Positions 1,490 through 59,754 of a DNA stretch of 64,000 nt are shown piece by piece. This DNA comes from a bacterium (GTDB lineage Bacteria; CLD3; SB21), in contig JABWCP010000001.1 of assembly GCA_013360215.1 (NCBI GenBank), positions 89,144-153,143 on the forward strand, given 5' to 3'. Every line of letters starts with the position of its first letter. The stretch's first letter is position 1. The position numbers and the translations under genes are program-made. Under the pieces are notes generated by a model. The model was not told the DNA's origin and searched no databases. It saw only the letters and a list, made by a program, of their open reading frames with translations.

Positions 1490-2074
1490 ATGAATTCTGG
1501 TTCTCCGGTTTACGAAAACGCTACGATAGAAACGGATCAGATACTGATCGAACGTATTCGCCGTGGTGATGAAAAAGCGCTCGTCACGATCTATCATAAT
1601 AATATCATGATGGTTCGCAAATATGTGATGGATAACAGCGGCCATGAAGACGACGCGCAGGATATGCTGCAGGATGCCATCGTTGTTCTTTGGGAAAATG
1701 TAACAAAAGGCCAGTTCGACTTGACTTCCAAGATCAGCACGTACCTTTATTCTGTGGTACGAAATAAATGGCTGCGGGAAATCAATAAACGCAAAATCGG
1801 CAAAACGAGCGATATTGCCGATTACGAAATGGCGGAAGAACAGATCGATGCCCTGCGCAGTGTGGTCCAAAAGGAAGAATTTAAGACTATTCTGCGTTGT
1901 ATCGAAAATATGGGCGCTACGTGCCGTAAACTGTTGATGATGTTTTATCTAGAAGAAAAAGGCATGGAAGAAATAGCTCATGAGTTAAAATTCAGCAATA
2001 CAGATGTCGCCAAGGCCAAAAAATGGCAATGCAAAAAAGAACTCGAAAAAATGGTCGAAAAAGCATTTCAATAA
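1490..2074 (+). CDS. ECF-type sigma-70 family RNA polymerase sigma factor
   Basis: 194 aa. Region 2 and region 4 signatures of the sigma-24 family (DAQDMLQDAIVVLWEN, LYSVVRNKWLRE, C-terminal HTH with EIAHELKFS). Confidence 0.8.
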   Translation: MNSGSPVYENATIETDQILIERIRRGDEKALVTIYHNNIMMVRKYVMDNSGHEDDAQDMLQDAIVVLWENVTKGQFDLTSKISTYLYSVVRNKWLREINKRKIGKTSDIADYEMAEEQIDALRSVVQKEEFKTILRCIENMGATCRKLLMMFYLEEKGMEEIAHELKFSNTDVAKAKKWQCKKELEKMVEKAFQ

Positions 2075-2127
2075 AACAGAAACTAAGCACAAGTAAAAAC
2101 AAATAACACGAAATGATGCGATAGAAT

Positions 2128-3033
2128 ATGGTAAATCCGATCGACCGCCAATGGCTTGATGAAAATGAGATTATAGATAAGTTTGTCTTCGGCAGACTGA
2201 CGGATAACGAATCTATCCGTCTGAGTGAATTACGTAAAAACGAAGATTTTAACGTGATGTTTGATCGCGAATTAATGACCATAGCCGCTTTGCGTGCACA
2301 TGGCCGCATGGCCATGAAACAACGCATTAGAGAATTGCTCCATACATCTTCTCCGCTACATTTATCGCACACCGCAAATCCGGCATCCGGAAAAGTAATG
2401 ACCATGCGTTTTGTGTGGCGTGCCGCAGCGGCCGTAGCTGTGATCGCCGGAGGACTCTGGATTTATAAGATGAATCTTCAACCGGCACCGGAAGTTGCTA
2501 AAAAACAAAATATTCAAAACGAGCAAGCACCGATTGTAAACACGGACAAACAGGCTCCTGCTCAAACGTCTACCGAGCCGGGTACTCCATCCAATGATGT
2601 AGCCGCAAAACGTACCAATAAACCCAACGAACGCAAGAGTATGATCGCCGGTCAGTTACCTCCGAGTAAAACTGATCGTACACGTCCGGCCGCTCTGGCT
2701 GCTGTTCCGCATGAAGTGTACGTGCCGATTTCAGTTTTGAATGCGACGGAATCCATAGAAACCCGTATTTTATTTAAAAATCCGTTCGACCTGGTTGCGG
2801 CGGATATACGCGAAACGCAGGATGAAAAGGACGGGCAGCTCAATTGGTTTTATGTGTACTACGAAAATCGTATCGTTAGCGCATATTTGGACAATTCTAA
2901 ATATGTAGCAAGATTTATCGGGACCCATCTGAAGGAAGAACCCGGGGTCTTGATAATAAATACGCCTCAATCCAAATATCGCGTTGATCTTACGACTAAA
3001 GAAAAATTCAAAAAAGCCGTACGCATTCCTTAA
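2128..3033 (+). CDS. Single-pass membrane protein, possible anti-sigma factor partner of the upstream ECF sigma
   Basis: Immediately downstream of the ECF sigma. One predicted TM helix (FVWRAAAAVAVIAGGLWIY) splits a cytoplasmic N-domain from a C-terminal domain. No recognisable ZAS motif, so function is inferred from context only. Confidence 0.4.
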   Translation: MVNPIDRQWLDENEIIDKFVFGRLTDNESIRLSELRKNEDFNVMFDRELMTIAALRAHGRMAMKQRIRELLHTSSPLHLSHTANPASGKVMTMRFVWRAAAAVAVIAGGLWIYKMNLQPAPEVAKKQNIQNEQAPIVNTDKQAPAQTSTEPGTPSNDVAAKRTNKPNERKSMIAGQLPPSKTDRTRPAALAAVPHEVYVPISVLNATESIETRILFKNPFDLVAADIRETQDEKDGQLNWFYVYYENRIVSAYLDNSKYVARFIGTHLKEEPGVLIINTPQSKYRVDLTTKEKFKKAVRIP

Positions 3034-8064: not shown

Positions 8065-8710
8065 CGAAAAAATACGATTTATCGCCATAGAAGGCGTCCT
8101 TAAGCCGGAAAACACCGCGCTCGCACGCAATCTTTCCCAGATGGCCAATGCCCGACCCATTTTGGAAGCCGAATTTCTTTCTCCATTGGTTAACATTCAC
8201 AGCACCGATCCCAAAGATATGGCCTTCAAAAAGCATATGCTGCACCTTATGGATCGGTATAAAATGCTCAAACAGATTCATCAGACTGAGATTTTTTTTG
8301 AACAGGTCATTTGCGATTATCTTTTTTATGCCGATCGCGTATATGCGAACCTGAAACTTGATAACGAAGATATGCATCTGTACGATACGATGATGAATGT
8401 GATGGAACGCGAATTACCCATACCGGATCTGGTCATCTATCTTCAGAGTAATATTGACACCGTGATGGAAAAAATTCACACCCGGCATGCACTCGGTAAT
8501 GCAAGCAAAGAACGGCAACGCATGGACGAAGCCTACATCGCAGCGCTCAACGAAGAGTTCAATCAATTTTTTCTTTATTACCGTTGGTCACCGGTGCTTA
8601 TTGTTAACGCCAATCAATTAGACCCGGAAAATACCCATCACCTCGAAGATCTTTACCAACGTTTAGATACGCGCTTATCCGGCGTAGTTTACTATAATCC
8701 GCCGGCCTGA
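8054..8710 (+). CDS. Deoxynucleoside-kinase-fold protein with a degenerate P-loop
   Basis: Matches the dNK/dCK/dGK family outside the P-loop (RFIAIEG..., FYADRVYANL, lid-like KERQRMDEAY). The canonical GxGK(S/T) is replaced by GVLKPENT. Start is uncertain (TTG near 8054; the ORF track's 7973 start lies inside folK). Confidence 0.5.
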   Translation: MATDEKIRFIAIEGVLKPENTALARNLSQMANARPILEAEFLSPLVNIHSTDPKDMAFKKHMLHLMDRYKMLKQIHQTEIFFEQVICDYLFYADRVYANLKLDNEDMHLYDTMMNVMERELPIPDLVIYLQSNIDTVMEKIHTRHALGNASKERQRMDEAYIAALNEEFNQFFLYYRWSPVLIVNANQLDPENTHHLEDLYQRLDTRLSGVVYYNPPA

Positions 8711-8729
8711 ATCCCCGAAAGGACGGATC

Positions 8730-9785
8730 ATGCGTGCCCCATCATCATTGCGCGATAACCTCCGATCACTTGTCCAAGAAGGAACACTGTATAAACAAAC
8801 CGACGACGGTCGTGTGCAATGTTACGCGTGCGGTCATCGCTGCATCATCGGCGAAGGGCGCGATGGTATTTGCAAAGTTCGCTTCAACCGCAATAATAAA
8901 TTATGGGTTCCCCACGGATATACGGCCGGCATACAACTTGATCCCGTCGAAAAAAAACCATTCTTTCACGTGTTTCCCGGCAGCACAGCGATGAGTTTTG
9001 GAATGTTAGGATGCGATCTGCACTGCGCGTATTGCCAAAACTGGATCACATCCCAAGCCTTGCAAGACCCATACGCCGGCGTACCGCCCCGTCTTATCAC
9101 CGCCGCCGAATTGGCCCAACATGCATCGGATCATGGCGCGCGCCTTCTCACAAGTACCTATAATGAACCGCTCATCACCGCCGAATGGGCGGTGCGCGTC
9201 TTTGAAGAAGGACAACGCCTAGGTTTATACGGTGCCTTTGTATCCAATGGCAATGCAACACCGGAAGTTTTAACTTTTCTGCGTCCGTATGTTTCTATGT
9301 ACAAAGTAGATCTCAAAAGTTTTAACGACAAAAATTATCGGAAGCTCGGTACCACGTTAAAAAATGTAACCGACAGCATAGAAAAAATTCATGCCATGGG
9401 TTTTTGGTTGGAAATCGTAACCCTGATCGTTCCGGGCTTTAATGATTCGGATGCCGAACTGCAGGGCATGGCATCATTTATAAAAAAAATTTCATCCGAT
9501 ATACCCTGGCATGTCACGGCGTTTCATCCTGACTACAAGATGACCGATCCGGATGAAACCGATGCCGATACATTAGCACGCGCAGCACATATCGGTAAAA
9601 ACGAAGGCCTGCATTTTGTATATACCGGAAATCGCCCGGGTGAACTGCGTGATATGGAAAACACGTACTGCCCGGGATGCAAAGCATTGTTAGTAAAACG
9701 CCACGGTTATCGCATTCAGCAAAATAGGATTATCCACGGAAAATGCCCGAATTGCGATCGGAAAATTCCCGGCTATTGGTCCTAA
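8730..9785 (+). CDS. Radical SAM enzyme of the AmmeMemoRadiSam / PFL-activating-enzyme-like type
   Basis: CDLHCAYCQNW radical-SAM cluster motif. Upstream Cys-rich N-terminus (CYACGHRC...C). Overall similarity to AmmeMemoRadiSam-system radical SAM proteins. Confidence 0.75.
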   Translation: MRAPSSLRDNLRSLVQEGTLYKQTDDGRVQCYACGHRCIIGEGRDGICKVRFNRNNKLWVPHGYTAGIQLDPVEKKPFFHVFPGSTAMSFGMLGCDLHCAYCQNWITSQALQDPYAGVPPRLITAAELAQHASDHGARLLTSTYNEPLITAEWAVRVFEEGQRLGLYGAFVSNGNATPEVLTFLRPYVSMYKVDLKSFNDKNYRKLGTTLKNVTDSIEKIHAMGFWLEIVTLIVPGFNDSDAELQGMASFIKKISSDIPWHVTAFHPDYKMTDPDETDADTLARAAHIGKNEGLHFVYTGNRPGELRDMENTYCPGCKALLVKRHGYRIQQNRIIHGKCPNCDRKIPGYWS

Positions 9786-9993
9786 ATTTACCCCTTATCG
9801 TAATCATTAGTTTTAAATTGAAATAAATAGCACTGGTATAAGTGTGCACGCATTTAATCTTCGATTGATTATTTTCTAACATCTTATTCTTAATAACGTA
9901 ATTGCTAAAATAGCGTAATGACTAATACTTCTTATTCAACACACTGATTCAATCTCCTACAGAAATTTAGTTTAATCCAAAATATTTGATTCC

Positions 9994-38615: not shown

Positions 38616-39182
38616 TTATTTGTCAAGCGGTTTGACGTTGGCCGCTTCATCCAAAATATCAAACAGACGACGGAGCGTTTCGCTTGTTATAACGATAGGA
38701 TTTTCAGCTGTTGGTTTAGAGGTGATACTCGGGGACGCATCGGCGCTATCGGGTTGATTTTTGTTGGCATCCGGTATCACGTGCAGCTTAAAAATTGAAA
38801 GACCGATTCCGCCTTCAGCCATAAGTTCGTCTGACAAATGTGCTATAGCCGATATTTTGATGACATAGATACCATCTGTCAAAAGTTTTGCGGGAGTGGT
38901 AATGGCCGTTTCGTGATGTTGGCCATATCTGATTTTTCTGACACTTCCGGGTATCATCGAGGCGCGCCAGCATTCTTCGATGCGTTTTCTTCCGTTCTGG
39001 CTTTCTTCCGGTAAATACCGGCCTACCGTGATGGTAAAATAATCAATCATCATCGGTACATCCGCCACGGTGCTCCATTCGATTTCCCAATTCTCCTCAG
39101 GAACAGTCATACCGCGTTGCTGCGGCTTCTGTATGGCATCCTGAGGACGCACTTGTATAAAAAATCGTTCCATACCTACCAA
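38616..39182 (-). CDS. Hypothetical protein
   Basis: 188-aa ORF overlapping the upstream exonuclease gene by 7 nt. No recognisable motif. Confidence 0.45.
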   Translation of the reverse strand: MVGMERFFIQVRPQDAIQKPQQRGMTVPEENWEIEWSTVADVPMMIDYFTITVGRYLPEESQNGRKRIEECWRASMIPGSVRKIRYGQHHETAITTPAKLLTDGIYVIKISAIAHLSDELMAEGGIGLSIFKLHVIPDANKNQPDSADASPSITSKPTAENPIVITSETLRRLFDILDEAANVKPLDK

Positions 39183-39817
39183 TTAACCTCTATTTGAATC
39201 GGTTTATTTCCGCGATCAAAATATTTGACGTGGCCTTCACGTACACCGTATTCTACCACATCACGCAAAACCTGCACATCTTGCTTACAATAGTCAATGA
39301 TCTCCTGTATCCGCCCTTCTTTCCACCATTTAAGCGCTTCCAGACCATCCGCACTTTTACCCACATTTAAAGTCGCAGTTGCCACACTGTCCAACTTGAT
39401 GCGATGTTTGAGTTTGAAACTCAGATATTGCGCGACGTCAAACGAACGCTTGTTGATTGGGGAAACATCTCCGTAATGCGATAATACTTTACTGTCAAAG
39501 TTATCGCCATTAAATGAGACAACTTTATCAAAGCCGCTCATATACTGAATCATCGCAGGCACATCTTTTTCATACCATACCTTGAAACCATCATTTTCCG
39601 CATAGGTTACCGCAATAGAAATCAGCATCAGATCCGCTCTATCCCAGCCACCGACTTCTTCGGCCAGTTTCTGAGTTTCCACATCGTAGTATACCAAACG
39701 TTTTCCGGCTGTGATCGGCTCTTCAACCTGAATCGTTGAAGATTCCAGATCAAAATGCGAATAACAGCTAAACCAATATTCCGCAGGATAGCGATCTTCA
39801 GGTACAACAAGCGTCAT
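39176..39817 (-). CDS. RNase H-fold DEDDy-type 3'-5' exonuclease (YprB/PolB-exonuclease-like)
   Basis: Exo I (YYDVET), Exo II (FNGDNFD) and Exo III (YCKQDVQVL) motifs in the correct order. 213 aa. Confidence 0.6.
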   Translation of the reverse strand: MTLVVPEDRYPAEYWFSCYSHFDLESSTIQVEEPITAGKRLVYYDVETQKLAEEVGGWDRADLMLISIAVTYAENDGFKVWYEKDVPAMIQYMSGFDKVVSFNGDNFDSKVLSHYGDVSPINKRSFDVAQYLSFKLKHRIKLDSVATATLNVGKSADGLEALKWWKEGRIQEIIDYCKQDVQVLRDVVEYGVREGHVKYFDRGNKPIQIEVNW

Positions 39818-49437: not shown

Positions 49438-49667
49438 GGAAGGGGTACTCCCCTTTTTTTCTTCAGAAATCACATCTTCGATCATAAGACTCCAGGATAT
49501 TTATCAAAAACAAAAACAATAAATTACGTGTTTATTCAAAGGCGCGGCAATATATTTATCCGACCCTGCAAAAACAAGTACTTTTATAGCAAAATCCAAT
49601 CATTACGAATGCACGGCAAAACTTTTAAATTAGATTAGAATCTTTTTATCCTTTTTTTATTTTTATG

Positions 49668-49708
49668 TGCTACACTGTAGCATAACGTGCGCATTTAATG
49701 CCGCACGT
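49668..49708. promoter_or_regulatory. Perfect 15-bp palindrome TGCTACA-C-TGTAGCA followed by a 7-bp inverted repeat (ACGTGCG-10 nt-CGCACGT) in the divergent typA / lipid-cluster promoter region
   Basis: Read directly from the sequence, within a 440-nt AT-rich intergenic region. Confidence 0.4.
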
Positions 49709-49928
49709 ACCGTGGCGGCGCTTTTAAGTCGCACATCAAATTGTTTATGTATTAGTATGTAAAATAAAACAAATAATTTTTAAAATATTATATAACAATC
49801 AAATATGGCTAATAAATACTAATAAAATAGTACTATTTTCTACTTGACAATAGTTTTATTTTGTTTAACATTTAGTTGTCCATATTAAACATTTTAACGC
49901 TACTATTTAAACGCGAGGAAGATGTCGT

Positions 49929-50675
49929 ATGGAAATTGCGATTTTTTTTGCAGGACATTGGTTCACGTCCTTGTTTTCCCAAAGTTTCTTTTTACACCGT
50001 TATTCGGCTCACAAGATGTTTAATATGAACGCGTTTTGGGAAAGGTTCTTTTATTTTTTCACGTTTCTGACGCAAGGATCGTCGTTTCTCAACCCGCGTG
50101 CATACGCCGTGATGCATCGAATGCACCACGCTTTCAGTGATACCGAAAAAGATCCGCATTCACCGCATTTTTTTAAGGATGTGTTTCGCCTGATGTGGCA
50201 TACCAAAAAAGTTTATTTTGACCTGTTGACGGGAAAAACTATTCCCGAACAACAATTTGACGGCGATACGCCGCGCTGGGGTTGGCTTGATGCGATGTCC
50301 AATGCCTGGGTCGTGCGCGTCGCGTGGGGTGTAGGATACTTTATTTTTTATTATTTTTTCGTCCCGGAAGGATATACCTGGCTATACGCCCTTTTACCAC
50401 TGCATTTTTTGATGGGACCGATACACGGCGCGATTGTCAACTGGTGCGGACATAAGTACGGATATGCTAATTTTGACAATCGTGATAAATCGAAAAATTC
50501 ACTCGTCTGGGACTTTATGTTGCTGGGCGAATTATTTCAAAATAATCATCATAAATACCCTAACCGGCCTAATTTTGCCGTGCGTTGGTTCGAATTGGAT
50601 CCGACCTATCCGATTATGAAGGTTTTGGATTGGATGCGAATCATACGTATACGCCGCAAATCCAACGCCGCGTAG
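49929..50675 (+). CDS. Membrane fatty-acid (acyl-lipid/acyl-CoA) desaturase-like protein
   Basis: GAGGAAG RBS. Three His boxes (HRYSAH, HRMHHAFSDTEKDPHSP, NNHHKYP) typical of Delta9-type membrane desaturases. Shorter (248 aa) than typical DesC. Confidence 0.6.
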   Translation: MEIAIFFAGHWFTSLFSQSFFLHRYSAHKMFNMNAFWERFFYFFTFLTQGSSFLNPRAYAVMHRMHHAFSDTEKDPHSPHFFKDVFRLMWHTKKVYFDLLTGKTIPEQQFDGDTPRWGWLDAMSNAWVVRVAWGVGYFIFYYFFVPEGYTWLYALLPLHFLMGPIHGAIVNWCGHKYGYANFDNRDKSKNSLVWDFMLLGELFQNNHHKYPNRPNFAVRWFELDPTYPIMKVLDWMRIIRIRRKSNAA

Positions 50676-50685
50676 AAAGAGAACC

Positions 50686-51036
50686 ATGCTTACTTTTCTG
50701 AAAATCCTATTCAGCGTTATTTTTGCGGGCATGATCGCCGTCGTGGTTACTACCAGCTACGAAAGTAATCTATTTACTCTGATCGCTACCTGGGATCCCG
50801 CGAATTCTATGGCCCCGTGGTTTTCGGCCACGCTGTGGGATTTTTATGCTAATGTCGTTTTTATTTTTGTGTGGGTTGCATATAAAGAAAACAATGTTCT
50901 TCGCAGTATTGTGTGGTTGATCTTGCTGGTTACTCTCGGAAGCATCGCCACGGCACTGTACGCATTGATTCAGCTTTTCAAACTGCAAACCGGGCAAACT
51001 ATACGTGATTTTTTTACGGCACAAAACGCAGCATAA
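50686..51036 (+). CDS. Small integral membrane protein (DUF1475-like)
   Basis: 116 aa with 3-4 hydrophobic helices, embedded in the lipid-modification cluster. Confidence 0.45.
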   Translation: MLTFLKILFSVIFAGMIAVVVTTSYESNLFTLIATWDPANSMAPWFSATLWDFYANVVFIFVWVAYKENNVLRSIVWLILLVTLGSIATALYALIQLFKLQTGQTIRDFFTAQNAA

Positions 51037-51051
51037 GCGCAGAAAAGACGC

Positions 51052-51831
51052 ATGGTACATGATTTTTGGAACTATCAGCTGATCGCGCTGATCGTCATGA
51101 TTTTAATTATGACGATTGTTTGGATTATCCATCTGATTATCCGGCGCGCCGATATTGTTGATATCGCTTGGGCATACAGCCTGTCGATATTGGCTGGAAT
51201 GTTTGCCTTGTTATCACCGCACGAAGGTTTGCGCCCTGTTCTGATGGCCGTGCTTGTCGGGATTTGGGGTTTACGACTTGGTACGCACCTCTTGTTGCGT
51301 ATCGCGGGTCATGAGGAAGACGGCCGCTATCAACAAATGCGTCGCGAAGGAAAAGGAGCATTGGATTTTTTTTGGTTTTTTCAATTTCAAGCCCTGCTCA
51401 ATGTCATACTCTGTATTCCGTTTTCATTCGTTGCACTCAACCCCGTCAACCGCCTCGGCTTTTTTGAATACGCAGGTTTGAGTATCGGCGTTATTGCGAT
51501 TATCGGTGAATCGCTCGCGGATGCGCAACTCCGTCGTTTCAAGGCGCGTACCGGCACCCGCGGCCAAGTCTGTCGCGATGGATTATGGAAGTATTCACGC
51601 CATCCTAATTATTTTTTCGAATGGTTGATATGGGTGGCCCTTTTTGTTTTCGCCTGCGGCTCACCGCTCGGGTGGATTTCCTTTATCGGCCCTTTATTGA
51701 TGCTGTATTTTCTTTTTAAAGTCACCGGTATTCCGGCTACGGAAGCGCAAGCATTGCGTTCCAAAGGCCTCGCATATGCAGAGTATCAACGCACCACCAG
51801 CGCGTTCGTACCGTGGGTCAATAAACAATAA
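51052..51831 (+). CDS. DUF1295 / steroid 5-alpha-reductase-like membrane protein
   Basis: GLWKYSRHPNYFFEWLIWVA C-terminal signature of the DUF1295/ICMT-like family. Confidence 0.65.
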   Translation: MVHDFWNYQLIALIVMILIMTIVWIIHLIIRRADIVDIAWAYSLSILAGMFALLSPHEGLRPVLMAVLVGIWGLRLGTHLLLRIAGHEEDGRYQQMRREGKGALDFFWFFQFQALLNVILCIPFSFVALNPVNRLGFFEYAGLSIGVIAIIGESLADAQLRRFKARTGTRGQVCRDGLWKYSRHPNYFFEWLIWVALFVFACGSPLGWISFIGPLLMLYFLFKVTGIPATEAQALRSKGLAYAEYQRTTSAFVPWVNKQ

Positions 51832-51852
51832 CAAAATATACAAAACTACGAC

Positions 51853-52881
51853 ATGATTCATACCCTACTTAAAAACGACCTCATTCCGGATGCATTCATT
51901 CGTTACGGTATTCGCAGACTATTACGTCAGCGTTTGTTTGAAGAAAAGAAACCGACGATCGAACTCCAATGGCAGCACTGGAAAAACTATATCAATATGC
52001 TCAAAGAAAGCCCTATCGCCATTGATACCAAGGCCGCGAATGAGCAACATTACGAGGTGCCAACCCGTTTTTTTCAGCTCGTACTGGGACGGCATCTGAA
52101 ATACAGTTCCGGCTATTGGCAAGAAGGTGTCACGGAATTGGATCGCGCCGAAAAAGACATGCTGGCCTTAACTTGTAGCCGAGCCGATCTGCGTGACGGA
52201 CAGGATATTTTGGAACTCGGATGCGGTTGGGGCTCCCTATCGCTTTATATGGCCGAACATTTTCCTCAAAGCCGCATCACCGCGGTTTCCAATTCCCGCA
52301 CCCAAAAGGAATTTATTGATGCCACAGCACGGCAACGCGGGTTTAATAATCTGACGATCATCACCGCCGACATGAATCATTTTACGACCGATCAAAAATT
52401 TGATCGCGTGGTGTCTGTAGAAATGTTTGAACACATGCGCAATTACCGCACGCTTCTCGCCAAGGTCGCCCAGTTTATGAAAGACGATGCCCGGCTTTTT
52501 GTACATATCTTTACCCACCGGGAGTATGCCTATCTTTTCGAAGTGCGCGATGAAAGCGATTGGATGGCCAAATATTTTTTTACCGGCGGTCAGATGCCCG
52601 GTGATATGCTTTTTCATTATTTCAATGAAGATCTTCGCATTGAAGAACATTGGCGCGTATCGGGTTTGCATTACGCCAAAACATCCGAAGCGTGGCTGGC
52701 CAACATGGATCGCCACCGCAAGGAAATCATGCCGCTTTTGGAATCAACCTATGGCAGCAACAATGCGCGCATGTGGTGGGTGTACTGGCGAATATTTTTT
52801 ATGGCCTGCGCCGAACTATGGCAGTACAACCAAGGTGACGAATGGTTAGTCAGTCATTACCGATTCAGGAAAAATATATGA
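51853..52881 (+). CDS. SAM-dependent methyltransferase of the cyclopropane-fatty-acyl-phospholipid synthase family (short form)
   Basis: ILELGCGWGSLSLYMAE SAM-binding motif. CFA-synthase-like core of 342 aa. Confidence 0.7.
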   Translation: MIHTLLKNDLIPDAFIRYGIRRLLRQRLFEEKKPTIELQWQHWKNYINMLKESPIAIDTKAANEQHYEVPTRFFQLVLGRHLKYSSGYWQEGVTELDRAEKDMLALTCSRADLRDGQDILELGCGWGSLSLYMAEHFPQSRITAVSNSRTQKEFIDATARQRGFNNLTIITADMNHFTTDQKFDRVVSVEMFEHMRNYRTLLAKVAQFMKDDARLFVHIFTHREYAYLFEVRDESDWMAKYFFTGGQMPGDMLFHYFNEDLRIEEHWRVSGLHYAKTSEAWLANMDRHRKEIMPLLESTYGSNNARMWWVYWRIFFMACAELWQYNQGDEWLVSHYRFRKNI

Positions 52882-53603
52882 ACCTGAAACGATCCTATTA
52901 CCTTTTGTTTGCGCTTTCGTCGGTCAGTTTGTCGGCCATAGTGTCGCCGACGGAAACGCCGACACTGCAACTTAAAACACCGGCATGGGATAACAAAAGC
53001 GGGACTCTGTTGTACACGGAGGAACGTAAACAATTTGACTCCGATGGAAAACCGGGACGATGGGAGTTTAATTATCAAAATCCCAAAGGACAAATCGTCG
53101 TTCAACGTTCAGTAAATTTTCAGCAAGACAAGCTCAAGCCTTCTTTTATACTTCGCGATTTACGCAACGGCTATAGTGAAGGCGCAGAAATCATCGGTAA
53201 TAAAATCAAAGTTTTTAGCGGCGGTTCGCCGGACGATCCGTACCAGGAAAAAACAATCCGGGTTCCTGAACCGGCTGTGATTGATGCAGGATTCCATTTT
53301 TTCATCGAACAACATTGGCGTGCTTTACTGAACGGTGAAACTAAAACGTTTTATTTCGTTGCACCGAGCCAATTGGATTATTTTTCATTTCGCGTTTATA
53401 AATCCGGTGAAACTCAGACCGGAGGCCGCACCGCGTATCAGTTGACTATGGATATTGATAATTTTTTACTCCGTCTTTTCGTGGACCCGATACGACTTAC
53501 ATATGATCCGGAAAGCCGTAAACTGATCGGATACGAGGGCATTTCCAATATCTACAACGACGAAGGCAAAGCCCATCATGTACGCATGGAATTTGTTTAT
53601 TAA
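52878..53603 (+). CDS. Secreted protein of unknown function in the lipid cluster
   Basis: Start at MNLKRSYYLLFALSSVSLSA (signal peptide), overlapping the upstream stop (ATGA). Confidence 0.5.
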   Translation: MNLKRSYYLLFALSSVSLSAIVSPTETPTLQLKTPAWDNKSGTLLYTEERKQFDSDGKPGRWEFNYQNPKGQIVVQRSVNFQQDKLKPSFILRDLRNGYSEGAEIIGNKIKVFSGGSPDDPYQEKTIRVPEPAVIDAGFHFFIEQHWRALLNGETKTFYFVAPSQLDYFSFRVYKSGETQTGGRTAYQLTMDIDNFLLRLFVDPIRLTYDPESRKLIGYEGISNIYNDEGKAHHVRMEFVY

Positions 53604-53626
53604 TTTCAATTCGGAGCGAGACTGAT

Positions 53627-54892
53627 TTGGAACGGTTAGCTATTATAGGCACAGGCATTGCCGGAATGGGATGTGCTCATTTTTTAAATCACCGGTATGA
53701 CATTACGATGTACGAACAAAACAACTACATCGGAGGACATACTCATACGGTCACCGTAGATGAAGAAGGTTCGCCTGTTTTTATTGATACCGGCTTTATG
53801 GTTTTTAACTTGGTTACGTATCCTAACTTAGTGCGACTCTTTAAAGAACTGGGCGTAGACTATAAGCCGACTTCCATGTCTTTTAGTGTTCAGCATGTAC
53901 CCAGCAAATTAGAATTTAACGGATCCGGCCTTAACGAATTATTTGCGCAACGTAAAAATTTGTTTAACCCGCCCTATATCCGCATGCTTTTGGAAATAAA
54001 TCGTTTTAACAATACGTGCCGTGAAGTGATCGAAAAATCGCAGTTCGCCGATTATACGCTCAAAGAATACGTTGAGGAAAAAGGATATAGTGACGATTTT
54101 TTGATGAAGTATCTCGTACCGATGAGTTCCGCAGTATGGTCTACCCCGCCGGATGCGATGCTTGGTTTTCCAGCCGCAGCGCTGGTTCGCTTTTTTGATA
54201 ACCACGGTTTTCTCGGTTTACATACCCAACATCCATGGTACACACCGGTCAACGGGAGTCAACAATATCGGGAAAAGCTTATCGCACCTTTTAGGGATCG
54301 TATTTTTACGGATCGAGCCGCCGTGCACGTTCGTCGCGAGAATGGGAAAGTTTTCATTACGGATAAACGCGGCGACAAAGCTGCTTTTGATAAAGTCATT
54401 ATAGCATCGCACGCCGACCAAGCGCTGGCCATGTTGGAGCAACCGTCGGAAGCCGAATATCGTTTGTTGAAAGAATTCAAATACCAAAAAAATATTACTA
54501 CATTGCATACGGATGCATCCGGCATGCCGCGAACCCGCCGGGCCTGGGCTTCATGGAATTATCGAATGGATCAAAAACATGACGGTTCACTTGAGGCGCA
54601 TACGATTTATTGGATGAATTCGCTCCAGCATGTATCCCAAAAAACAAATTATTTTGTTTCGATCAATGGCGCGGAACGCATTGCACCGGATCGCGTGATT
54701 CGCCGCATGACCTATGAGCACCCCGTTTTTTCAGTAGCCGCGATGAAAGCGCAATCCGAGCTCCCGACCCTCAACACCAAAGGACCGGTGTATTTTTGCG
54801 GGAGTTATTTTCGCTATGGATTTCATGAAGATGCGTTTATGTCCGCATTGGCATTGTGCCGTCAAATCACGGGAGAAGCGATTTGGTTATGA
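53627..54892 (+). CDS. FAD/NAD(P)-binding amine-oxidase-family oxidoreductase
   Basis: N-terminal dinucleotide-binding motif IAIIGTGIAGMGCAHFL...YEQNNYIGGH. Confidence 0.7.
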   Translation: MERLAIIGTGIAGMGCAHFLNHRYDITMYEQNNYIGGHTHTVTVDEEGSPVFIDTGFMVFNLVTYPNLVRLFKELGVDYKPTSMSFSVQHVPSKLEFNGSGLNELFAQRKNLFNPPYIRMLLEINRFNNTCREVIEKSQFADYTLKEYVEEKGYSDDFLMKYLVPMSSAVWSTPPDAMLGFPAAALVRFFDNHGFLGLHTQHPWYTPVNGSQQYREKLIAPFRDRIFTDRAAVHVRRENGKVFITDKRGDKAAFDKVIIASHADQALAMLEQPSEAEYRLLKEFKYQKNITTLHTDASGMPRTRRAWASWNYRMDQKHDGSLEAHTIYWMNSLQHVSQKTNYFVSINGAERIAPDRVIRRMTYEHPVFSVAAMKAQSELPTLNTKGPVYFCGSYFRYGFHEDAFMSALALCRQITGEAIWL

Positions 54893-55692
54893 ATTCATGC
54901 CTGTACCGATGCCGTGTCATGCATCACCGGATGGAACCGAAGCCGCATCGCTTTTTCTATAATATTTTCATGTTCTATCTGGATTTGGACGAATTGGACA
55001 CACTATCCGATAAACTTACACTTTTCGGACATAATGCATTTGCAGTTTTCAATTTTAAAGACACCGATCATTTATTTTATAGCGGCACATCGCGACGTGA
55101 GCATATCACAACCTATCTGCGACAAAACGGCATTACTTCTCCGGTAGGTCGTATCATGTTGCTGACGCATGTTCGTATGTTGGGTTATGTATTCAATCCC
55201 GTGTCGTTTTATTTTATTTTCGATAATGACGACCAACCGATTTGCGCCATTCCGGAAGTTGGCAACACGTTTGGCGAAATGAAACCCTACTTGATTCGCC
55301 GCAGCATGGAATCGTCCCATACATTTTACCTGAAAACCACAAAATTTTTTTATGTCTCCCCATTTATTGATATGGATGCAGAGTTTGAATTTGACCTCAC
55401 GTTGCCGGACGATCAGCTGATGATGCGTATCAATGATATTCAGAATAATCGCCGTTTTTTTGTCAGCACCTTATCCGGAAAACGACAGATACTAACCGAT
55501 GCAAGATTGGCACTGTATCTTCTTCGGTTTCCACTCGTAACCTTGCAGGTGATATTTTTTATTCACTGGCAGGCATTTAGACTGTGGTTGAAAAAATTAC
55601 ATTATCATAAAAAAACGGATTTTCCCGACTTACAACGGGAGGTACATCATGCAGGAAGTTATGTTAACGCCATTGCCACAGAGCGCCGATAA
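54889..55692 (+). CDS. DUF1365 family protein
   Basis: YRCRVMHHRMEPKPHRFFYNIFMFYLDLDELD N-terminal signature. ATGA overlap with the upstream oxidoreductase. Confidence 0.65.
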   Translation: MNSCLYRCRVMHHRMEPKPHRFFYNIFMFYLDLDELDTLSDKLTLFGHNAFAVFNFKDTDHLFYSGTSRREHITTYLRQNGITSPVGRIMLLTHVRMLGYVFNPVSFYFIFDNDDQPICAIPEVGNTFGEMKPYLIRRSMESSHTFYLKTTKFFYVSPFIDMDAEFEFDLTLPDDQLMMRINDIQNNRRFFVSTLSGKRQILTDARLALYLLRFPLVTLQVIFFIHWQAFRLWLKKLHYHKKTDFPDLQREVHHAGSYVNAIATERR

Positions 55693-56920
55693 CACCAAAA
55701 AATTAATGCCGGGTTTTTACGAAAAACTGGTACTTCGTACGTTCGAAGGAATGCATCAAGGTTACATGCGCATCCATTTGCCGGACGGACGAATGTATAC
55801 GTACGGTAATGCCAATGCCGAATTGCAGGCAACAATCCAAGTGCGCAGCAATAATTTTTTTAAGAAATGCGCTCTTTACGGTGATATCGGTTTCGGCGAA
55901 GCCTATGTGGATGGCGATTGGGACACCGACAGCGTTACCCGTGTGATTCGCTGGTTTTTGCTCAACGTCGAACAAGCGCCTACCATTTCCGGATCCAAGC
56001 GCCGCATCGTCACCGCTAATTTTCTCAAAGGGATAAATCGTTTATATCATCGGTTGCGGGAAAATACCGTCAAACTTGCGCGTAAGAATATTCAGGCTCA
56101 TTACGATCTGAGCAATGAATTTTTCAAAACGTTTCTGGATGCTTCCATGACTTATTCAAGCGCGTATTTCCGTACGCCCGATATGTCGCTGGAAGCCGCA
56201 CAAACGGAAAAATATGACCGTCTTTGCCGTCAGCTGAAACTCAAGCCGACGGATCACGTTCTCGAAATCGGTAGCGGCTGGGGCGGGTTTGCCTTGCATG
56301 CGGTCAAACACTACGGTTGTAAGATTACGACGATTACGATTTCAGAAGAACAGTATCATTATGCCCGCGCACGTTTTGCAGCCGAGGGATTTGCGGATCG
56401 GATTTCAATATTGTTTACGGACTATCGCAATGTCAGTGGTCAATTTGACAAAATCGTATCCATCGAAATGCTGGAGGCCGTAGGGCATCGCTATTTCAAA
56501 ACTTACTTTGCAAAACTTCATGAAGTACTAAAACCCAATGGCCTTGTCGGCTTGCAAGTCATTATATGCCCCGATTCACGCTACACCGCATTGCGCAAAG
56601 GTGTGGACTGGATTCAAAAACATATTTTTCCCGGATCCTTGTTGCCATCCGTAGGTGTGCTCCATGAGGCCGCTCATCGCACCGGCGATCTTTCACTGGT
56701 TGATCTCAAACATCTTGGTCGTCATTATGCCCGCACATTGGCCACTTGGCGTGATCGCTTTAATCAGAATAACGAACTGGTACAGGCGCTGGGTTTTGAT
56801 GAAAGTTTTCGACGGAAATGGAATTATTATCTTAGCTATTGCGAAGCGGCTTTCGAAGCGCGTAATATAGGTGTTGTACAAATGATATGGTCACGCCCCA
56901 ATAATATGCTGGTTTCATGA
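55649..56920 (+). CDS. Cyclopropane-fatty-acyl-phospholipid synthase family methyltransferase (long form)
   Basis: 423 aa. N-terminal region typical of Cfa (LRIHLPDGRMYTYG). SAM motif VLEIGSGWGGFALHA. C-terminal YLSYCEAAFEARNIGV. Exact start uncertain. Confidence 0.75.
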   Translation: MQEVMLTPLPQSADNTKKLMPGFYEKLVLRTFEGMHQGYMRIHLPDGRMYTYGNANAELQATIQVRSNNFFKKCALYGDIGFGEAYVDGDWDTDSVTRVIRWFLLNVEQAPTISGSKRRIVTANFLKGINRLYHRLRENTVKLARKNIQAHYDLSNEFFKTFLDASMTYSSAYFRTPDMSLEAAQTEKYDRLCRQLKLKPTDHVLEIGSGWGGFALHAVKHYGCKITTITISEEQYHYARARFAAEGFADRISILFTDYRNVSGQFDKIVSIEMLEAVGHRYFKTYFAKLHEVLKPNGLVGLQVIICPDSRYTALRKGVDWIQKHIFPGSLLPSVGVLHEAAHRTGDLSLVDLKHLGRHYARTLATWRDRFNQNNELVQALGFDESFRRKWNYYLSYCEAAFEARNIGVVQMIWSRPNNMLVS

Positions 56921-57396
56921 TCACCGATTTCTTTCGACGACGCCTTATTCAGCCGCTGATGGATTTGTTACGCCAAGGCCTTTCCGCCGAAAAACTTGCG
57001 CTGAGTGTCAGCCTCGGTTTTGTGTTGGGTATATTCCCTATGATCGGCGCCACGACCATTTTATGTTTGGTGATCGGAGCGCTTTTTCGTGTTAACCAAC
57101 TGGCCATTCAAACGGTTAATTATTTTCTCTTTCCTGTACAAATCGCTTTTTATATTCCTTTTTTTCAGATGGGTGCTTGGCTTTTCGGATACGATCATTT
57201 TCCTTTCACGTTTGAAGAGATCGCAACCATGCTCAGCCGTAATCCATGGCAAGCCATCGTATCCCTATGGTGGGCCAATCTGCGTGCTATAACGGCATGG
57301 CTTCTTACGGCGCCGCTTTTAGGCGGAATACTCTATCTGATTTTAGTTCCCGTTTTCAAACCTATCACAGCGCGTTTCTTTCCGGACAAGGCTTGA
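56917..57396 (+). CDS. DUF2062 family membrane protein
   Basis: 159 aa with 3-4 TM helices. Overlaps the cfa-like stop. Confidence 0.55.
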   Translation: MITDFFRRRLIQPLMDLLRQGLSAEKLALSVSLGFVLGIFPMIGATTILCLVIGALFRVNQLAIQTVNYFLFPVQIAFYIPFFQMGAWLFGYDHFPFTFEEIATMLSRNPWQAIVSLWWANLRAITAWLLTAPLLGGILYLILVPVFKPITARFFPDKA

Positions 57397-57496: not shown

Positions 57497-59479
57497 ATGG
57501 CACCGCTGCGTAGGATGATCCTTACGTTGTTCTATCCGCTTGCTTTTATACTGGCGAGTAATAACGGCGGGAATCCACTTGTAGATTCTCTTTCGAGCAT
57601 TTCGCCCGAATCACCATACTATTCCACGGCTATGGTACGCCTGTCTGAAATTCTCATGACGGAAAACACCGTGTTATCCCGACGTGCCGCGGAGGAGGCT
57701 ATGCGCAATGCTATACGCACATCGCCCGACGATCCGTGGCACTATGTACGTTTAAGCAAAATACAATTTGAACGCAGTTTTTACCGTTCTGCGTTTGCCG
57801 CCTGCGATGATGCGATCCGGGTCAATCAATCTAAACCAGTGCCTTATCATGATGTTTTTTCCGAAGCCTATTACTACAAAGGCCTGATCAAAGAACGGCA
57901 AGCGCTCAAATACAAAGATATGATCAGCCCCGTTAACGAAGATTTCAGCATTTCTTTATCCAATTTCGGTTACGAAGATATGTTGGAATCAGCGCGATAC
58001 TACGAAAAAGCGCTGGAATATAATGGCACACATCGGGACGCCCTTTTTCATCTGGGGTTGTTGTATTATGAAATTCGTGCGTTTGATAAAATGTCGGCTT
58101 TGTTTGAAAAAATCATTCAGTATAAGCCGGAAGACAAAGATGCCTTGATGTTTTTGGGGCTGGCTTATTATCACCGCGGCGATTTTGCACAAAGCCACAC
58201 CTACTACCAACGCGCCATGCATGCGATGTCGCCGGAAGAGGCTTCGCGTGTTAATCATATCGGACATATCATACCCCGAGACGATAAAGAAAGCTATTTG
58301 TCCCGCGCCGGAAGCCCTACGCAATCATCAGCTTATGCGGCACAGTTTTGGCGGAAGCGTGATCCCCTGTTGTCGTCGGATTACAATGAACGTATGTTGG
58401 AACATTATAATCGAATGGCGTACGTCAATCTTCGTTTTGGAATACCGCGACAGAATATCATGGGTTGGGAAACAGAACGGGGTATGATCTACATTCGGTA
58501 CGGCAAACCCTCGCAATGGGTGCGCACACAACCGGACGAAAAAATGCTGGGCGGTACCGAAATATGGTATTATCCGAGGTTCTCATTTCGTTTTGAGGAT
58601 CATTACAGCAGCGGAAAATTTTTGCTGGATAATCCCTCACTGCTCGCATCGGAATCGGCCTATAACGAGCATTCGGAAGATTACGTATTTCCGGCCGAAC
58701 GTTTATTCCCTGTGACGGCCAGAGTGTATCAATTCAAATCCCAATCCGGTCTCAACAAAATACGCGTGTATTATTCCGCCCTGATCAAGTCCATGGACCC
58801 CGATTATGAGACCTACGGTCCGACCGGCAAAACACAAACCGGTTTTTTTATCACAGATTCCGAGCGAAACATTTTATCTAAAACCATGGATACTTCGCTC
58901 GTTGAACCGAAAGAAACCCGGGATGCGCATGTATATAAAACGACCACGATGGAGACCTTCATACAAAGTAAAGAGCCCGTGCAGTGGTCTCTCGAATTAA
59001 AATCTTTGGGTGAATTTCGTTATGCGATGGCCGGCGATTCGTTGACCCTCCGAAGTTTTTCGTCACGCACTTTGGATATGAGCGATGTTGTTTTGGCCGA
59101 TTATGTTGACGAAAATAAACCTTATGCCGTTTTTGCCAATACCCAAGGTGTTTTGCAGGCAGACAAACCCCTATACTTTTTTGCCGAAGTGTACAACCTT
59201 ACTTTAGAAAAAGATCAAAGCCGTTTTGTCGTGGAAGCCGGATTAGCGCCGCATGCGACGGGTGGCATACGAACCTTTTTGCAAAAAATTTTCGGAAACA
59301 CCGATGCCTTGGTGTATTCGACGTTTGAACAAACCGGCACGTCCCGTGATGATACCGTTACCTTTGCGCTCAATGTCAGTGAGGTACCGCCGGGAAACTA
59401 TGATGCCGTTGTACGTATAAGGGATTTGATTTCCGGGCATACCACCGAACAGAAAACATCTATCAGGATCGTACGATGA
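57497..59479 (+). CDS. TPR-repeat protein with a GWxTD-like domain
   Basis: Signal peptide. TPR repeats. Motif IMGWETERGMIYIRYGKPSQW resembling the GWxTD domain family. Confidence 0.55.
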   Translation: MAPLRRMILTLFYPLAFILASNNGGNPLVDSLSSISPESPYYSTAMVRLSEILMTENTVLSRRAAEEAMRNAIRTSPDDPWHYVRLSKIQFERSFYRSAFAACDDAIRVNQSKPVPYHDVFSEAYYYKGLIKERQALKYKDMISPVNEDFSISLSNFGYEDMLESARYYEKALEYNGTHRDALFHLGLLYYEIRAFDKMSALFEKIIQYKPEDKDALMFLGLAYYHRGDFAQSHTYYQRAMHAMSPEEASRVNHIGHIIPRDDKESYLSRAGSPTQSSAYAAQFWRKRDPLLSSDYNERMLEHYNRMAYVNLRFGIPRQNIMGWETERGMIYIRYGKPSQWVRTQPDEKMLGGTEIWYYPRFSFRFEDHYSSGKFLLDNPSLLASESAYNEHSEDYVFPAERLFPVTARVYQFKSQSGLNKIRVYYSALIKSMDPDYETYGPTGKTQTGFFITDSERNILSKTMDTSLVEPKETRDAHVYKTTTMETFIQSKEPVQWSLELKSLGEFRYAMAGDSLTLRSFSSRTLDMSDVVLADYVDENKPYAVFANTQGVLQADKPLYFFAEVYNLTLEKDQSRFVVEAGLAPHATGGIRTFLQKIFGNTDALVYSTFEQTGTSRDDTVTFALNVSEVPPGNYDAVVRIRDLISGHTTEQKTSIRIVR

Positions 59480-59754
59480 AATGGTTAGGATGGTTTCATA
59501 AACCCAAATCAGCTATTTCCGTTGAAATTTTTAGCAAATCGGATTGTCATTTATGCGATGAGATATCCGATGCGTTTCATGGTCTGCAAAATGAATTCCC
59601 CATGACCATAAAATACACCGATATTACTTCCGATGAAACCTTGTTTGAAAAATACCGCTACGATATTCCCGTAGTATTTGTCAATGGCCGCAAAGCATTC
59701 AAGTATCGCGCAACAACCGATGCGATACGAAAACGTTTGCGCAGAGAGATATAA
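59476..59754 (+). CDS. Glutaredoxin-like (DUF836/thioredoxin-fold) small protein
   Basis: 92 aa with CHLC redox motif. ATGA overlap with the upstream gene. Confidence 0.6.
   Translation: MKWLGWFHKPKSAISVEIFSKSDCHLCDEISDAFHGLQNEFPMTIKYTDITSDETLFEKYRYDIPVVFVNGRKAFKYRATTDAIRKRLRREI

Follow-up and report, generated by a model that had tools for sequence, protein, structure and literature searches.

A nine-gene operon with homologs of the furan fatty acid enzymes in a bacterium from an uncultured lineage

A cluster of nine co-directional genes lies at positions 49929-57396 on the plus strand of a 64-kb stretch of bacterial DNA (contig JABWCP010000001.1, positions 89,144 to 153,143), which we call the window. 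Judging from the protein families it encodes, this cluster is probably an operon that converts the acyl chains of membrane phospholipids to methylated furan fatty acids (FuFAs). In the established bacterial pathway, UfaM (RSP2144) methylates cis-vaccenate, the flavin adenine dinucleotide (FAD) enzyme UfaD (RSP1091) forms a conjugated diene, and UfaO (RSP1090), a DUF1365 protein, makes the furan ring in an O2-dependent reaction (Lemke et al. 2020, PMC7380195). The Rhodopseudomonas palustris genes RPA2571-2570-2569 (ufaD-ufaO-ufaM) suffice for the synthesis of 9M5-FuFA, and FufM (RPA0924) adds a second methyl group to the furan (PMC7380195). The window cluster encodes homologs of UfaD and UfaO together with two S-adenosylmethionine (SAM) methyltransferases of the CMAS family. 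Its genes, with families assigned by Pfam, and one candidate promoter are as follows.

49844..49871, plus strand: candidate sigma-70-like promoter, TTGACA-16-TAACAT, about 60 nt 5' of the first gene (consensus scan)
49929..50675, plus strand: short three-His-box membrane fatty acid desaturase, 248 aa (FA_desaturase, 3.8e-16)
50686..51036, plus strand: DUF1475 small membrane protein, 116 aa (1.8e-17)
51052..51831, plus strand: DUF1295 polytopic membrane protein (DUF1295, 8.4e-67)
51853..52881, plus strand: short CMAS-family SAM methyltransferase, 342 aa (CMAS, 1.1e-40)
52878..53603, plus strand: secreted beta-barrel-like protein, 241 aa (no Pfam family; Sec-type signal peptide)
53627..54892, plus strand: UfaD homolog, FAD amine-oxidase/phytoene-desaturase-like, TTG start (Amino_oxidase, 6.5e-18; NAD_binding_8)
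54889..55692, plus strand: UfaO homolog, DUF1365 (DUF1365, 6.5e-74)
55649..56920, plus strand: long CMAS-family SAM methyltransferase, 423 aa (CMAS, 8e-89)
56917..57396, plus strand: DUF2062 membrane protein, 159 aa, final gene of the operon (2e-11)

The strongest tie to the known pathway comes from UfaD and UfaO. Reference sequences from Cereibacter sphaeroides were recovered by way of the primers published in the supplement of PMC7380195, and a metagenome search with a 21-mer of the ufaD primer (encoding TYWMNSL) returned 60 loci. One of these, L060, derives from a 3.0-Mb contig and contains exact matches to eight of the C. sphaeroides primers from that supplement. It encodes ChrR, RpoE, RSP1091 (UfaD), RSP1090 (UfaO), and the 401-aa RSP1089, with rpoE-chrR adjoining ufaD-ufaO. 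The window FAD protein is 38% identical to this UfaD over 423 aligned positions, which is its full length (E = 1e-99), and the window DUF1365 protein is 30% identical to this UfaO over 238 positions, or nearly its full length (E = 4e-33). In the window the ufaD homolog is directly upstream of the ufaO homolog on the same strand with a 4-nt overlap, and the two genes are likewise adjacent in L060. All 60 metagenome loci encode a UfaD homolog, and DUF1365 follows just downstream in the 50 that represent every contig reaching far enough. In a minority of the 60 (e.g., L045, L049, and L059), a long CMAS methyltransferase comes directly after ufaO.

Two probes taken from R. palustris were less informative. 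A ufa primer gave ten chance matches and no cluster gene when compared with species genomes, and a 24-mer from the 3' end of ufaO had no match in the metagenomes. A single-sequence AlphaFold model of the UfaO-like protein was unusable, with a mean predicted local distance difference test (pLDDT) score of 41.6. Systems of the tuberculostearic acid type combine a methyltransferase resembling cyclopropane fatty acid (CFA) synthase with an FAD_binding_4 oxidoreductase. Such a system was considered for the window and rejected, because its FAD protein is of the Amino_oxidase type and matches UfaD. A possible confusion of UfaM with RSP1089 as a CFA-like gene was also set aside once the sequence of RSP1089 had been recovered. 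This gene, which follows ufaO at positions 5566-6771 of L060 and is dispensable for FuFA synthesis, encodes a polytopic membrane protein resembling those of the major facilitator superfamily (MFS), and it may be a pathway-associated transporter.

The nine genes fit a single operon. Successive junctions measure 10, 15, 21, -4, 23, -4, -44, and -4 nt, and this tight packing, together with a gap of 100 nt between the last gene and the next one, is the reason for treating them as one unit. An initial annotation, prepared from the letters of the window and a list of its open reading frames (ORFs), had described co-directional genes with overlapping stops and starts, and four such overlaps were measured. 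Its ORFs are real, all lying on the plus strand where it had placed them or within a choice of start codon, and every family that it named was recovered with Pfam. Its list of nine genes was confirmed, and the count of eight in its title was not. Gene calling done independently on a public contig of identical sequence (Logan SRR17665590_282, locus L001) produced the same nine genes. The G+C content of each gene, between 0.39 and 0.48, is the same as that of the remainder of the window, so there is no sign of recent transfer.

Could these genes be neighbors by chance, or not be co-transcribed, and share no common pathway? Scans for promoters and terminators performed no better than on shuffled sequences, as would be expected if so. 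The candidate promoter is the sole 10/12 consensus match in the region, and it is weak evidence because shuffled sequences give at least as many matches overall; the same type of scan revealed no convincing terminator within the operon. However, chance adjacency is hardly credible given four start/stop overlaps, the absence of any intergenic gap above 23 nt, and the recurrence of the arrangement elsewhere. Three unrelated contigs (L007, L008, and L083), reached through homologs of the fifth protein, which lacks a Pfam family, have the full layout with the desaturase gene first and DUF2062 last, and their proteins share 37-72% identity with those of the window. The core also recurs in two Bacteroidota genera and on three proteobacterial plasmids.

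Among the Bacteroidota, Chitinophaga sancti and Dyadobacter psychrotolerans (L005 and L006) have the order DUF1475, DUF1295, short methyltransferase, a variable slot, Amino_oxidase, DUF1365, and long CMAS. The short methyltransferase, used as a tblastn query against plasmids, matched 234 records, all of them proteobacterial among those listed, and three were examined. The plasmid of Acinetobacter sp. WY4 (NZ_CP053948.1; L011) carries, in a single string, genes for a lipocalin, an acyl-CoA desaturase, an FAD oxidoreductase, DUF1365, a CFA-like protein, DUF1295, and the short methyltransferase, so that this membrane desaturase comes directly before the FAD gene, and a photolyase gene is nearby. 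On the plasmid of Cupriavidus sp. USMAHM13 (NZ_CP017753.1; L009), the CFA-like, DUF1295, and short methyltransferase genes stand together, and their neighbors encode DUF2878, a lipocalin, a chalcone-isomerase-like protein, a DUF1365-FAD pair, and a photolyase. The plasmid of Ensifer sp. PDNC004 (NZ_CP070354.1; L010) encodes a sigma factor, a ChrR anti-sigma factor, DUF1295, the short methyltransferase, DUF1365, and a CFA-like protein, with the FAD gene divergent. Proteins of the plasmid clusters are 27-53% identical to those of the window.

The initial annotation had linked the cluster to the UfaM, UfaD, and UfaO loci of the sigmaE/ChrR regulon. This homology holds, as seen from the identities to UfaD and UfaO, the ufaD-ufaO-methyltransferase gene order, and the sigma factor and ChrR genes beside the DUF1295-methyltransferase gene of Ensifer.

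The long methyltransferase occupies the position expected for UfaM. The ufaD-ufaO-methyltransferase order of the window is that of R. palustris (PMC7380195) and of Halomonas (PMC12089945). In the latter, the methyltransferase gene consecutive with ufaD and ufaO yields 11-methyl-octadec-12-enoate when expressed in E. coli (PMC12089945). An alternative is that the products are not furans but cyclopropane fatty acids or simple ones with a mid-chain methyl branch, in which case the long methyltransferase would be a true CFA synthase and the FAD and DUF1365 proteins would have other functions. Its best PDB match is indeed the E. coli CFA synthase (3.4e-56), it is 35% identical to E. coli Cfa with the CMAS fold and the N-terminal lipid-binding domain both covered, and its public annotation is CFA synthase family protein. 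Against this, its score with the NCBIfam Cfa equivalog model NF008686 is 289.4 bits (159.7 bits for the short methyltransferase), and both proteins fall below the cut-off of 400. A phylogeny of the CFA-like proteins, which the initial annotation had suggested as a check, was run with E. coli Cfa, and the comparison with UfaM was made by synteny and family. In the resulting neighbor-joining tree the long methyltransferase does not join canonical Cfa, but groups with methyltransferases linked to ufaD and ufaO in Bacteroidota and Proteobacteria, leaving E. coli Cfa outside.

The bicarbonate site provides a further distinction. The bicarbonate ligands reported for the E. coli enzyme (Courtois & Ploux 2005; Iwig et al. 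2005) are C139, E239, H266, I268, and Y317, and the alignment shows these residues in E. coli. The corresponding positions are S, E, Q, I, and Y in the long methyltransferase and S, E, H, F, and Y in the short one. Retention of Glu239, Ile268, and Tyr317 is what a cyclopropane synthase would show, whereas Gln replaces His266 and Ser or Ala replaces Cys139 in 12 of 12 long methyltransferases linked to ufaD and ufaO. An IEMxEAVG motif is also present in such proteins (window, L005-L011, L045, L049, L059, and L064) where E. coli has VGMFEHVG. Gln266, Ser/Ala139, and IEMxEAVG may together be a sequence marker that divides UfaM-type methylases from cyclopropane synthases. Moreover, the gene is translationally coupled to full-length homologs of both enzymes that act after UfaM, and the syntenic methyltransferases of R. 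palustris and Halomonas are UfaM by experiment. We therefore regard a cyclopropane or simple methyl-branched product as improbable. The support for a UfaM-like function of the long methyltransferase is good but indirect.

The short methyltransferase is a less certain candidate for the FufM-like enzyme that would carry out the second methylation of the furan ring. It is only 20-25% identical to the long methyltransferase. Its best PDB match is a coclaurine N-methyltransferase (6gkv; E = 1.8e-77, 37.7% identity over 334 residues), and its match to the E. coli CFA synthase is far weaker (2.7e-26). It forms a clade of its own with the proteobacterial cluster copies, to which it is 48-52% identical, and it has thousands of relatives at 64-70% identity, many of them from Bacteroidota (Chitinophaga, Dyadobacter, Mucilaginibacter, Filimonas, and Puia). 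FufM itself is 37.9% identical to AT4G33110/LIME1 (PMC10940516), a protein annotated as a putative coclaurine N-methyltransferase (PMC3388832), and only 26% identical to UfaM (PMC7380195).

The DUF1295 protein is probably best viewed as a partner of this methyltransferase. Its gene is directly upstream of the short methyltransferase gene in the window, L005, L006, L008, L009, and L011, and the two are fused in L010. In L007 and L083 it is instead located inside a divergent operon with genes for a CarH-type regulator and glutathione peroxidase. The protein has weaker Pfam matches to Steroid_dh (2.2e-6) and ICMT (1.2e-4), as for the superfamily of steroid 5-alpha-reductase and ICMT-like proteins. 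The published primers show that in R. palustris the start of fufM and the stop codon of the preceding gene, RPA0923, overlap as ATGA, which resembles the coupling of DUF1295 to the short methyltransferase elsewhere. At positions 8143-9993 of the Ensifer plasmid locus, directly after the ChrR gene, the two proteins form one 616-aa ORF with no stop codon between them, of which the gene table of the plasmid annotates the methyltransferase half only. This ORF may be a natural fusion that joins the functions of DUF1295 and the methyltransferase.

These same features admit another explanation, in which the short methyltransferase works with DUF1295 and the beta-barrel protein as a module of its own, acting on some other lipid or small molecule, for example by N- or O-methylation or by reduction of another membrane lipid. 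The operon would then make only a monomethyl FuFA plus an unrelated modification. The nearest solved relatives of the short methyltransferase are N-methyltransferases of alkaloid pathways; a further locus, L084, has the short methyltransferase gene adjoining that of the beta-barrel protein alone, without ufaD or ufaO; and DUF1295 is split from the operon in L007 and L083, where it accompanies glutathione peroxidase. DUF1295 and the short methyltransferase also travel fused or coupled independently of the position of ufaD and ufaO, and the likeness to FufM was judged from published identity figures rather than from direct alignment. On the other hand, FufM is itself closer to a coclaurine-N-methyltransferase-like protein than to UfaM, and the short methyltransferase follows the same pattern. 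All close relatives, and the Bacteroidota as well, have it inside the ufa operon, and FufM homologs have been reported only among organisms that have UfaM, UfaD, and UfaO, and in only a subset of these (PMC7380195). We consider a separate module possible, but lean against it.

The annotation had also proposed that two CFA-family methyltransferases and an extra desaturase indicate a differently wired pathway, and on this point we disagree. The two methyltransferases are most simply the known UfaM and FufM pair, so no rewired pathway is indicated, and the full set with a desaturase is also present in Proteobacteria (Acinetobacter).

The remaining products have less evident roles. The desaturase does contain the three His boxes reported for it (HRYSAH at residue 23, HRMHH at 63, and QNNHH at 204). 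It scores 2.5e-33 with the NCBIfam DesA family, which is below the cut-off, and has a weak match in the PDB to acyl-CoA desaturase 1. It is a conserved short form of 245-248 aa with kinship to DesA and acyl-CoA desaturases. Its gene is first in L007, L008, and L083, as in the window. We suppose that it would introduce the cis double bond of the phospholipid acyl chains. Among the loci examined, only the group of the window, L007, L008, and L083 has the short desaturase and DUF2062. DUF2062 is also the last gene in those three loci, and it is absent from the Bacteroidota and proteobacterial versions examined. DUF1475 keeps its position in L005, L006, L007, L008, and L083 and is common to the Bacteroidota clusters; it was not found at the three proteobacterial plasmid loci.

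The description of the fifth protein as secreted is reasonable, given its Sec-type signal peptide. Its predicted fold is confident and beta-barrel-like, and it could be a periplasmic carrier of a hydrophobic ligand. A profile search with clustering at 50% gave 2,746 representatives of this family at E ≤ 1e-3 and 772 at E ≤ 1e-30. Large as it is, the family lacks a Pfam model, and none of the ten members tested gave a Pfam match for this domain. Some homologs carry the labels of Gemmatimonadetes metagenome-assembled genomes.

Put together, the operon suggests a pathway of five catalytic steps. The three-His-box desaturase would put a cis double bond into an acyl chain, and the long methyltransferase, on the basis of synteny and family, would add a methyl group from SAM to give an allylic methyl-branched trans-monoene. 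The UfaD homolog would desaturate this monoene to a conjugated methyl-diene, after which the UfaO homolog would close the furan ring with O2 to give a monomethyl FuFA; homology is established for both enzymes, and their activities are presumed from it. The FufM-like short methyltransferase, less certainly, would add a second methyl group to yield a dimethyl FuFA. DUF1295, DUF1475, the secreted beta-barrel protein, and DUF2062 would be conserved accessories, and the FuFAs would serve as sacrificial scavengers of singlet oxygen and radicals.

Several observations weigh against this assignment. The UfaO homolog is only 30% identical to UfaO, the UfaM and FufM assignments draw on synteny, subfamily placement, and statements in the literature, and a role was assigned to only five of the nine genes. 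No paper connecting furan fatty acids to the Bacteroidota genera with this cluster turned up in a full-text search. No regulator was found in the window, and the operator repeats seen in some relatives (described below) do not occur upstream of its operon. Furthermore, cis-vaccenate may be scarce in this lineage, in which case the chain length and ring position of the product could differ. A more far-reaching reading is that the lineage-specific genes for the short desaturase, DUF1475, DUF1295, the secreted beta-barrel protein, and DUF2062 make this a self-contained FuFA pathway that starts from saturated chains in a host without cis-vaccenate, and that yields an undescribed ring position or chain length. 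The products or their oxidized forms would be handed to a periplasmic LolA-like carrier for movement to or from the outer membrane, and DUF1295 would be a missing catalytic partner, for example in a reductant-coupled or methyl-handling step. Taken jointly, we consider these proposals unlikely.

Regulation of the operon appears to differ from that of the sigmaE regulon, in that no ChrR gene was found in the 64 kb of the window. Pfam scans of the larger ORFs of the window found no ChrR-like gene and no CarH/LitR gene. ChrR is present at the reference locus L060 and on the Ensifer plasmid. The sole protein with sigma-70 region 2 among these ORFs is encoded at 1490-2074, 48 kb from the operon. This gene for a protein like those of the extracytoplasmic function (ECF) sigma factors is followed, within 1490-3033, by one for a 301-aa protein without a Pfam family, which is possibly an anti-sigma factor, and the pair has no evident link to the operon.

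Some relatives appear to use a different type of control. In L007 and L083, a divergent operon is headed by a gene for a protein with MerR_1, B12-binding_2, and B12-binding domains, followed by those for glutathione peroxidase and DUF1295. The domains of this regulator suggest the class I CarH/LitR type that uses adenosylcobalamin (AdoB12). The intergenic regions that this operon shares with the cluster (7697-7875 in L007 and 5683-5875 in L083) each contain two sites of two tandem 11-bp units (TTATACA-N4-TTATACA), and two such paired-repeat sites were reproduced in none of 2000 shuffles. CarH operators are tandem 11-bp repeats with the consensus nAnnTnnACAn (PMC8156234). The repeats in L007 and L083 fit this operator logic, from which direct light control of the cluster is predicted in these two loci, with the operon de-repressed by light through an AdoB12-type CarH/LitR repressor. 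No CarH-type 11-bp repeats were found upstream of the operon in the window or in L008.

Several further observations link such genes to light. In Pseudomonas, ufaM is light-induced through LitR (PMC9758184). A putative CFA synthase gene of Vibrio cholerae is induced by blue light in dependence on ChrR and a MerR-like protein (PMC5241685), and the CFA-like, CNMT-like (coclaurine N-methyltransferase-like), DUF1365, and DUF1295 genes of Chlamydomonas are co-induced by singlet oxygen (PMC4067076). Photolyase genes are located beside the clusters on the Acinetobacter and Cupriavidus plasmids.

The AT-rich intergenic region of 443 bp between typA and the operon contains a GC-rich island at 49655-49760 with two palindromes (GCTACAcTGTAGC and ACGTGCG-N11-CGCACGT). 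As RNA the island folds marginally better than its shuffled counterparts (z about -1.8), and it has no match in Rfam. It may be an operator for some regulator. A pair of TATGTA sequences spaced 10 bp apart upstream of the operon is unexplained.

The flanks of the operon are of two kinds. Upstream, on the opposite strand, are the housekeeping genes typA, ffh, rpsP, rimM, trmD, and rplS. Downstream on the same strand, at 57497-59754, are a gene for a 660-aa GWxTD/TPR protein and, overlapping it, a glutaredoxin-like gene, a pair that also follows DUF2062 in L008 and does not in L007 or L083. The initial annotation placed the cluster in a non-proteobacterial background, and this is plausible. The relatives of TypA at 75-82% identity are followed by a next tier at 67% or less from mixed phyla, and the GWxTD domain and outer-membrane proteins of the CarboxypepD_reg type point loosely to the Fibrobacterota-Chlorobiota-Bacteroidota (FCB) group. 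Farther away, at 38616-39817, two overlapping ORFs of 188 and 213 aa on the minus strand, the former without a Pfam match, are flanked by an adenine phosphoribosyltransferase-like gene and a TonB-dependent receptor gene.

FuFAs are potent membrane antioxidants. Genetic proof of the bacterial pathway for their synthesis comes from two alphaproteobacteria only, and for the UfaM step from Halomonas as well. With this operon and its relatives, the predicted pathway reaches an uncultured lineage and common Bacteroidota of soils, such as Chitinophaga and Dyadobacter. Most likely the operon is a new example of the pathway already worked out in purple bacteria and not a new kind of pathway. Its new elements are modest, comprising the arrangement as a single nine-gene operon, four conserved accessories, a host outside the proven phyla, and, in relatives, B12-CarH in place of ChrR. 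The latter wiring suggests that outside the Proteobacteria light itself, rather than the singlet oxygen sensed through ChrR, could be the cue. One transcription unit would bring together every known step, a candidate desaturase to form the substrate, and four conserved accessory proteins. Packed in this way, the operon would suit heterologous production as a compact construct, and it is a promising place to seek the partners of UfaO (its reductant and cofactor) and the role of DUF1295.

The closest known counterpart is found in R. palustris CGA009. Its RPA2571-2570-2569 genes match the three core families of the window and their order. As in the window, a further SAM methyltransferase is only distantly related to the first (about 25% identity), and its gene is translationally coupled to the one before it. 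A dimethyl furan fatty acid is the predicted end product here as well. However, the genes of R. palustris are divided between this locus and RPA0923-fufM (RPA0924), whereas the window has one operon, which adds the membrane desaturase, DUF1475, the beta-barrel protein, and DUF2062 in a non-proteobacterial host. C. sphaeroides (the RSP1091-1087 operon and RSP2144) likewise has adjacent, co-directional ufaD and ufaO. In that species rpoE-chrR and ufaD diverge, ufaM lies elsewhere, an MFS-like gene comes after ufaO, and the L060 locus shows no fufM, DUF1295, or membrane desaturase gene.

All three proteobacterial plasmids share DUF1295 and the short methyltransferase with the window, and the whole enzyme string is present in Acinetobacter. 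The short methyltransferase module comes last on the plasmids but first in the window, the Acinetobacter desaturase is a longer type with 29% identity to that of the window, and lipocalin, chalcone-isomerase-like, DUF2878, and NTF2 proteins replace DUF1475, the beta-barrel protein, and DUF2062. Photolyase or ChrR genes adjoin the plasmid clusters. In the LitR regulons of Pseudomonas putida and P. mendocina (PMC9758184), pmlR1 is beside phrB-ufaM, much as a LitR/CarH gene is beside the cluster in L007 and L083. The Pseudomonas regulator is a class II LitR with a light-oxygen-voltage (LOV) partner and no B12, whereas the L007 and L083 regulators appear to be of class I, with both B12-binding domains and tandem repeats.

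The long methyltransferase differs from E. coli Cfa at two of the five bicarbonate ligands and in genomic context. Among eukaryotes, the same four or five families co-occur in Arabidopsis, with AtUFAMD1 (AT3G23510), AtUFAO1 (AT1G30130), and LIME1/AtFUFM1 (AT4G33110), and in Chlamydomonas, with the SAK1-dependent genes CFA1, CFA2/CPLD27, DUF1365, and DUF1295. In plants and algae these genes are scattered, and plants carry the FAD and methyltransferase domains as a fusion. Relative to these sets, DUF1475 is a further family in the window operon.

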